The position numbers and the translations under genes are program-made. This document shows positions 24,956 through 25,136 of a stretch of 64,000 nt of DNA, piece after piece; position 1 is the stretch's first letter; each line of letters opens with the position of its first letter. Under the pieces are notes generated by a model. That model worked only from the letters and a program-made list of their open reading frames with translations. It ran no database searches and was not told the DNA's origin. Location: IMG/VR virus record IMGVR_UViG_3300028048_000112, positions 24,956-88,955 of that record. One strand, 5' to 3'. The stretch comes from a virus (lineage: Duplodnaviria > Caudoviricetes).

Positions 24956-24968
24956 ACATATAAATATA
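24956..24968 (+). promoter_or_regulatory. Late-type promoter motif driving a non-coding unit
   Basis: AACATATAAATATA. Confidence 0.55.
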
Positions 24969-25136
24969 AAAACTCGGCTATTCGATTTTTACTTAATCGA
25001 ATAAAAACACATCGGTCTTTCTTTTTCAATCGGTGTGTTTGGTCAGTTTTTATTACATGGGCTCCTTTTTGGCTTGCGAAAACCTCCTTTTTTTGGCATG
25101 AGGTCTCTCCCTCTTTTGAGGGAGAGACATTTTTTT
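24966..25136 (+). ncRNA. Candidate small RNA (about 170 nt) with two hairpins, two anti-SD repeats and a terminator
   Basis: Promoter motif; hairpins 24979-25003 and 25005-25040; CTCCTTTTT(TT)GGC twice; GTCTCTCCCTC-TTTT-GAGGGAGAGAC-ATTTTTTT. Confidence 0.55.

Follow-up and report, generated by a model that had tools for sequence, protein, structure and literature searches.

Small trans-acting RNAs with CU-rich motifs that block Shine-Dalgarno (SD) sites occur in low-GC Gram-positive bacteria, and include LhrC1-5, the staphylococcal RsaE and RNAIII, and RoxS of Bacillus. In phage T4, an endoribonuclease, RegB, shuts off early mRNAs via their GGAG SD sequence at the early-to-late transition. 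For virulent and jumbo phages the cataloguing of small RNAs has just begun, and we know of none to which a function has been assigned. The blocking of SD sites by CU-rich seeds is an established mechanism, described for Listeria LhrC (PMC4132741). The phages phiKZ and 201phi2-1 produce short terminated RNAs of unknown function (PMC10914365, PMC11512511), one of which, upstream of phiKZ gp182 and of 201phi2-1 gp277 (sRNA005), is described as derived from the 5' UTR by premature termination (PMC11512511, PMC10914365). The c4 antisense RNA of phages P1 and P7 has exposed segments that pair around the ribosome-binding site (RBS) and block translation (review PMC12197685).

The window analysed here is a stretch of 64,000 nucleotides, bases 24956-88955 of an 88,955-bp IMG/VR virus record that is rated 32% complete and has a G+C content of about 33%. 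Judged by its proteins and by its early and late promoter motifs, the source is a phiKZ/AR9-type jumbo phage; a split RNA polymerase beta subunit, a tail sheath protein and a terminase are also encoded in the window. Public runs containing the stretch were bovine, sheep and other animal gut metagenomes, and one relative came from pig gut. Our subject is a 228-bp spacer (24952-25179) between two plus-strand genes, the first of 208 aa, which forms an operon with a 249-aa gene, and the second of 717 aa. The 717-aa protein aligns with phiKZ gp182 (E = 4e-25) and matches virion proteins in 279 jumbo-phage records. A 2180-aa upstream ORF occupies the place of phiKZ gp181, and two extra genes lie here between the gp181 and gp182 homologues. 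This spacer probably encodes a discrete and conserved small non-coding RNA of the phage.

Other features of the neighbourhood were recorded along the way. A GC-rich island (22900-23400, in a genome of 33% G+C) lies within the insertion that separates the gp181 from the gp182 homologue and that more distant relatives do not have; both strands of the island carry overlapping ORFs, and the minus strand has AAGGAGG twice. Between the gp181 homologue and this island sits a tRNA-like gene (22412-22491, minus strand) that scores 51 bits as an Rfam tRNA and for which ARAGORN gives no normal anticodon, reporting a 4-base 'cccg'. In several runs, contigs are interrupted or fork at 23452-23486, where depth is raised and loose ends occur on either side; the probable cause is a repeat or variable junction close to the early-promoter island that precedes the 249-aa gene.

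Layout of the spacer and its promoter motifs

The sequence features named in a preliminary description of this locus were all recovered at the same positions (Table 1). Both of the hairpins that it listed are present; only the size of the second departs from the 10 bp first assigned to it, G-U pairs being counted here. Its strong plus-strand terminator is well founded, having the G+C-rich stem and the U run of an intrinsic terminator. It ranks top among terminator-like sites in the 20-32 kb region and lies 44 nt upstream of the ATG of the 717-aa gene. Two CTCCTT within 40 nt of each other are found at just one other place in the 89-kb genome, and a paralogue of the element was not found there.

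Table 1. Coordinates of the features in and next to the spacer.
Feature	Position	Strand	Remarks
Late-promoter-like AACA-N6-TA, AACATATAAATATA	24955-24968	+	AACA at 24955-24958, then TATAAA, then TA
Promoter-like motif ACATATAAATATA	24956-24968	+	Reads AACA-N6-TA with the preceding A
Y-shaped 5' domain	24966-25053	+	Closing helix, 24966-24978 with 25042-25053, around two hairpins
Hairpin 1	24979-25003	+	9 bp, 7-nt loop
Hairpin 2	25005-25040	+	12 pairs including G-U; U/C-rich loop 25017-25028
Invariant block 1, ACAUGGGCUCCUU	25055-25067	+	Contains CUCCUU
CU motif CTCCTTTTTGGC	starts 25062	+	
Invariant block 2, AAAACCUCCUUU	25079-25090	+	Contains ACCUCCUU(U), the letters of the 16S rRNA anti-SD tail
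CU motif CTCCTTTTTTTGGC	starts 25084	+	ACCTCCTT at 25082-25089
Intrinsic terminator	25103-25136	+	11-bp stem (25103-25128, 7 G-C pairs), 4-nt loop, T7
Late motif of next gene, ACATTTTTTTATA	25127-25139	+	Matrix score 11.2; overlaps the terminator T run
Late motif of next gene, ACAATCTAATATA	25145-25157	+	Matrix score 10.6
717-aa gene	25180-27333	+	phiKZ gp182 homologue, tail-region structural gene

Neither strand of the element carries a conserved ORF, and no SD-bearing ORF follows the motif at 24956. A plus-strand ORF of 14-20 aa that opens at a conserved ATG was rejected, since it has no SD and its frame differs between the two clades described below. Rfam gave no match near a gathering score (the best was 22 bits for a threshold of 50), and a match to the PyrR site, at 19 bits versus 54, was too weak to be kept.

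The minus strand was considered as the source of a functional product, either an AAGGAG-rich sponge of the CsrA type or a tiny ORF. It reads AAGGAGG, and AAGGAG followed by CCC-ATG-stop, the stop codon being kept as TAA or TGA, and a 25-aa ORF is common to the window and one relative (L003). However, this ORF was rejected: it lacks an SD and is shifted out of frame by a 2-nt indel in two other relatives (L021 and L022). There is likewise no promoter motif on that strand and no T run after the hairpin, and the GGA motifs are unstructured, whereas a CsrA/RsmA sponge would need them in hairpin loops. We consider a minus-strand product extremely unlikely.

Two classes of motif are found upstream of the long ORFs of the phage. 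The early type, TTATTTATATATTAT, lies mostly ahead of short minus-strand genes, and the late type, ACAWTTNTATATA, ahead of structural genes. Both agree with the motifs defined experimentally in AR9, where the early one is AAATATATATTAT-N6-G and the late one AACA-N6-TA/G, with transcription starting at the last base (PMC5312081). A regular expression for ACAWTTNTATATA had ten matches in the whole genome, each on the strand of the gene and a short distance ahead of an ORF start; for the six that fall in the window, the distance to the ATG is 17-40 nt.

The late-type motif reported at 24956 holds by one measure and fails by another. It fits the AR9 rule, which predicts A24966 as the start, and AACA-N6-TA stands just behind the 208-aa stop codon, in the same place, in 13 of 13 elements and in both clades. 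In contrast, its score on the phage's own matrix is at chance level: it agrees with the late consensus ACAWTTNTATATA at 11 of 13 positions (2.8 bits), a score equalled or exceeded by 548 genome sites versus about 501 in shuffles, and two-mismatch matches to the consensus numbered 57 versus 52 expected. A relaxed pattern, ACAWNTNWATATA, which was picked after the site was known, gave 10 matches where 0.74 were expected; each falls in an intergenic region, on the same strand as the gene. As far as the sequence goes, a promoter at 24955-24966 is plausible.

The next gene, as had been proposed, appears to have a promoter of its own, with one late-type motif at 25127 and another at 25145, the latter being a perfect ACATTTGTATATA in the second clade. 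The final stem bases of the terminator and its T run also form ACATTTTTTTATA, 18 nt ahead of the second motif, and this tandem arrangement is kept in both clades.

Inspection of the motifs elsewhere gave some further observations. A variant late motif, ACAAATAAATATA, was found at 42584-42610, and the AAAACTCCGG downstream of it resembles the AAAAACTCGG that follows the 24956 site. It lies 130 nt ahead of a likely start at 42728; therefore, the listed ORF start at 42692 is probably wrong. For four minus-strand ORFs (29698-30018, 30097-30684, 61341-61853 and 61916-62293), the start predicted by TTATTTATATATTAT-N6-G is the G of the first ATG. The true start codons of these ORFs are therefore probably downstream and preceded by AAGGAG, for example at 29976, 30642, 61808 and 62254.

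Conservation and folding in two clades

Homologues of the 717-aa protein were searched for among 5.8 billion proteins, and the contigs of the closest ones were inspected. This gave 13 spacer elements, with nine distinct sequences, from two clades. The window clade consists of the window, L002 and L044, whose 717-aa homologues fall in one 90%-identity protein cluster (that of L002 is 98% identical to the window's), and the second clade stands at about 64-66% protein identity. None of the 13 elements has lost the promoter motif, either CU block or the terminator. Conservation in relatives had been suggested as a check, and it came out in favour of the element, the layout of which is kept in the second clade at about 64% protein identity.

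Between the clades, identity is unevenly distributed. The 82-nt 3' half is 85-86% identical, versus 57-59% for the 5' domain, which is close to neutral, 67% for coding DNA and 41-51% for fourfold-degenerate sites. Blocks 1 and 2 are identical across the nine distinct variants, and the intervening spacers vary in both sequence and length. For block 2, AAAACCUCC is invariant, and all 12 letters are unchanged if one disregards an alignment gap in the T run after the block. Only the window clade has the exact repeat with the ...GGC tail; the relatives keep CUCCUU twice, inside the 12-13-nt blocks. The terminator stem shows one compensatory change between the clades, from U-A to A-U. Because the blocks are invariant between variable spacers, and because the 3' half exceeds neutral identity, the comparison argues for selection on the two blocks themselves.

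Beyond these clades, the element was not found. More distant relatives (L004-L009, 53-57% protein identity) are without it, and in L007 and L008 the 208-aa homologue directly joins the gp182 homologue with a gap of 3-4 nt. Megablast against phage records and IMG/VR detected no close relative, nor did two protein-guided scans. Scans of IMG/VR, JGI metagenome contigs and GTDB genomes for the two-block pattern returned only chance matches in unrelated, mostly GC-rich DNA, and no host-encoded copy of the two blocks was found in the GTDB genome scan. About 4 kb downstream of the element, after the baseplate genes, the second clade (L021-L026) has an opposite-strand gene of 199-201 aa with a weak Pfam match to Peptidase_U49 (Lit-like).

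Folding of the 199-nt spacer gave a z of -7.5 relative to shuffles. The 5' domain of the window has a minimum free energy of -27.2 kcal/mol (z = -7.55) and that of L044 a z of -5.1, whereas the second-clade 5' domain does not fold better than shuffles (z of -1.1 to -1.5). All variants are predicted to share a layout, in which the closing helix around two hairpins is followed by a mostly single-stranded stretch with block 1, then by a weak hairpin that displays or flanks block 2, and then by the terminator; in the fold of the window, block 2 is the loop of this weak hairpin (25075-25098). Among the paired positions, seven one-sided changes within clades keep pairing and three break it, and two-sided pair changes numbered zero within either clade. 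A common 5' architecture across clades is therefore suggestive only, given the weak z of the second clade and the lack of two-sided changes. The CUCC cores are predicted to be accessible: in six variants, their unpaired probability is 0.58-0.96 in block 1 and 0.59-0.97 in block 2, versus a mean of 0.37-0.44 for the whole RNA.

A hint of expression and the nature of the product

Three metatranscriptome runs contain the phage. One of them, a rumen run (X3), has a separate 141-nt contig that corresponds exactly to 24978-25098, with 0 differences, contigs being uninformative as to strand, ends and level. Its mean word depth was 65.2, versus 3-8 for neighbouring contigs, contig depth being a poor measure of expression. 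An Illumina adapter of the read-2 type, GATCGGAAGAGCGTCGTGT, follows directly after 25098 in plus orientation, and this junction is a sign of short inserts with a recurrent end. In dUTP-type libraries, a read-2-type adapter in plus orientation corresponds to plus-strand RNA; the library type of X3 is not on record, so that the orientation is a weak argument against the minus-strand product considered above.

At its 5' side the contig falls 12 nt short of the predicted start; at its 3' side it reaches the last base of the weak hairpin, 5 nt short of the terminator stem. Loss of a few 5' nucleotides and of a 3' hairpin is common in random-primed libraries, and a processed 3' end is equally possible. 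X3 has no contig over 24702-24977 or 25099-25172, gaps between contigs carrying no weight. A second run of the same sample (X2) has one uniform contig across the region, and in the third (X19) the region is not covered. This metatranscriptome contig, from one sample, is taken only as a hint that the element is expressed. Along with the conserved parts of the element and the lack of a conserved ORF, it supports the earlier proposal of a discrete, non-coding plus-strand RNA.

A simpler account would make the spacer only the structured 3' UTR and terminator of the 249-aa/208-aa operon, serving mRNA stability and insulation and having no function in trans. The genes on either side are both in plus orientation, and the terminator at 25103-25136 is the only one that the 208-aa gene has, so the operon needs it. 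The chance-level score of the 24956 motif is in keeping with this account, stable 3' fragments often accumulate, and some of the conservation is accounted for by the terminator and by the promoter of the next gene. However, the 12-13-nt blocks are not needed for termination, yet they are conserved far beyond neutral sites and the 5' hairpins. AACA-N6-TA is also kept in both clades, and distant relatives join the two genes with a gap of only 3-4 nt; therefore, a long spacer is not required. On balance we find the 3' UTR account somewhat unlikely, while giving it serious weight.

The position of the element also recalls the leaders of phiKZ-type phages, which make many short RNAs by premature termination, one of them at this same place, upstream of gp182 homologues (PMC11512511, PMC10914365). 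By analogy, the spacer could act in cis as a leader for the gp182 homologue, with a conditional terminator at which most transcripts from 24966 would stop (25136), the short RNA being a by-product and read-through tuning the gene. However, late motifs lie between the terminator and the gene, one of them perfect in the second clade; therefore, the gp182 homologue does not depend on read-through. Inspection of the folds revealed no upstream segment that would pair with the 5' arm of the terminator as an antiterminator, and the sequence bears no likeness to the phiKZ or 201phi2-1 spacers. A cis-acting leader is distinctly unlikely.

The CTCCTT repeats might alternatively act as DNA, as sites for a regulator of the downstream late promoters. 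They lie 60-80 bp upstream of these promoters and are about two helical turns apart, a distance that relatives preserve (21-22 bp, versus 22 bp in the window). However, the terminator stands between repeats and promoters, AR9-type polymerases read just about 11 bp of promoter (PMC5312081), and the X3 contig points to an RNA product, all of which makes DNA sites very improbable.

Proposed Shine-Dalgarno pairing and comparison with known systems

The two blocks mirror RBSs of the AAGGAG type, and block 2 shares a nine-letter sequence with the 16S rRNA tail. The RBS contexts that the preliminary description had quoted as complementary to the repeats are present, CAAAAGGAG at 30650 and 31319, CCAAAGGAG at 29987 and GCCAAGGAG at 6708. 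The complementarity extends over AAGGAG and a few A's, but the GCC/CC parts can pair only with bulges, so that this claim stands in part. AAGGAG was found ahead of 13 of 22 genes with an early motif, versus 3 of 12 with a late motif, which is a trend and not a significant difference (p = 0.08). Late genes carry GAGG or GGAG sites, which are also able to pair.

Matches of the blocks to SD sites are generic and 6-10 nt long, in 89 kb of a record rated 32% complete. Searches of these 89 kb for exact or near-exact complements detected no extended or clade-specific target. The single complement of block 1 with one mismatch (genome 9797-9808) was set aside, as it is not at a gene start. A whole-genome duplex scan was uninformative, its top matches being in GC-rich islands and having long internal loops.

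This outcome would also fit a protein-binding or decoy RNA, the CU blocks of which, one copying the 16S tail ACCUCCUUU, would titrate a factor that binds pyrimidine-rich RNA or the anti-SD tail. Such a factor might be ribosomal protein S1, or else a nuclease or toxin of the host that is directed at the 3' end of 16S rRNA. In favour of a decoy, the two blocks are invariant while their spacing and the letters between them vary, no specific mRNA target was found in 89 kb, and the X3 contig hints at high abundance. On the other hand, no evidence of a partner accompanies it, the identity to 16S is limited to 9 nt, and block 1 (GGGCUCCUU) is not a 16S sequence. We hold a decoy to be markedly improbable.

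The best reading of the mechanism is that of a CU-rich seed RNA of the LhrC/RsaE kind, which would dampen strong SD sites. In such a scheme, an RNA of about 170 nt would be made from the plus strand of the spacer (24966-25136). It would be synthesized late by the phage non-virion RNA polymerase, from the AR9-type promoter just behind the 208-aa stop codon, or else would arise from the 3' end of the 208-aa late operon, and would end at the intrinsic terminator. The structured 5' domain may confer stability, and the two invariant, accessible CUCCUU blocks would be the seeds, pairing with AAGGAG-type SD regions of mRNAs and lowering their translation. Targets would be phage genes with early promoters, among which AAGGAG is commoner, and possibly host mRNAs too. 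Promoter activity and its timing, action in trans and the targets are what we infer here; blocking of SD sites by the RNA is plausible from its letters. The full reading, a plus-strand small RNA of about 170 nt that includes SD occlusion, is tentative, a real possibility that falls short of probable.

The preliminary description had gone further and proposed an early-to-late translational switch, the late timing of which would depend on the 24956 motif with its chance-level score. A late and abundant RNA with two copies of the ribosomal anti-SD sequence might be a general competitor for strong AAGGAG sites and thus shift translation from early or host mRNAs to late ones; we regard this extension as unlikely. 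If it were true, late mRNAs with weaker or different sites would be favoured, and the RNA would be a counterpart of T4 RegB. The likeness to RegB is a functional analogy only, RegB being a protein nuclease, whereas the RNA proposed here would act by occlusion. In either case, the candidate is a concrete RNA with which to ask whether phages regulate translation globally via SD/anti-SD pairing. It also suggests that the promoter rules of AR9-type phages hold for jumbo phages of the gut that have not been cultured.

Among the described systems, the element can be set beside RNAs of the LhrC/RsaE type. Like them, the predicted RNA is small, ends in a terminator and has redundant, accessible C/U-rich motifs complementary to the SD core, here predicted in the loop of hairpin 2 and in the two single-stranded blocks. 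It differs in having no sequence or Rfam relationship to them, in carrying CUCCUU where they carry UCCC or CCCC, and in belonging to a jumbo phage of the virulent type, with a promoter motif for a phage polymerase; its pairing with target mRNAs is putative. With c4 of P1 and P7 it has in common that a phage-encoded RNA is proposed to pair near the RBS through exposed segments. However, c4 belongs to a temperate phage and is specific for its cognate target, ant, whereas the complementarity seen here is to SD sites in general. Like the phiKZ and 201phi2-1 small RNA, the element is directly upstream of a gp182 homologue, with an intrinsic terminator in front of the gene. On inspection, the corresponding spacers of phiKZ and 201phi2-1, at just 50-55 nt, consist of a terminator and an SD, and have no CU blocks and no sequence likeness to the one described here. 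In contrast to those phages, the promoter motifs of the gene here follow the element, and the gp181 homologue is set apart from the gp182 homologue by two extra genes. At the gp182 address, phiKZ-type phages would then have two short RNAs that are unrelated to each other, the known one and the candidate described here.
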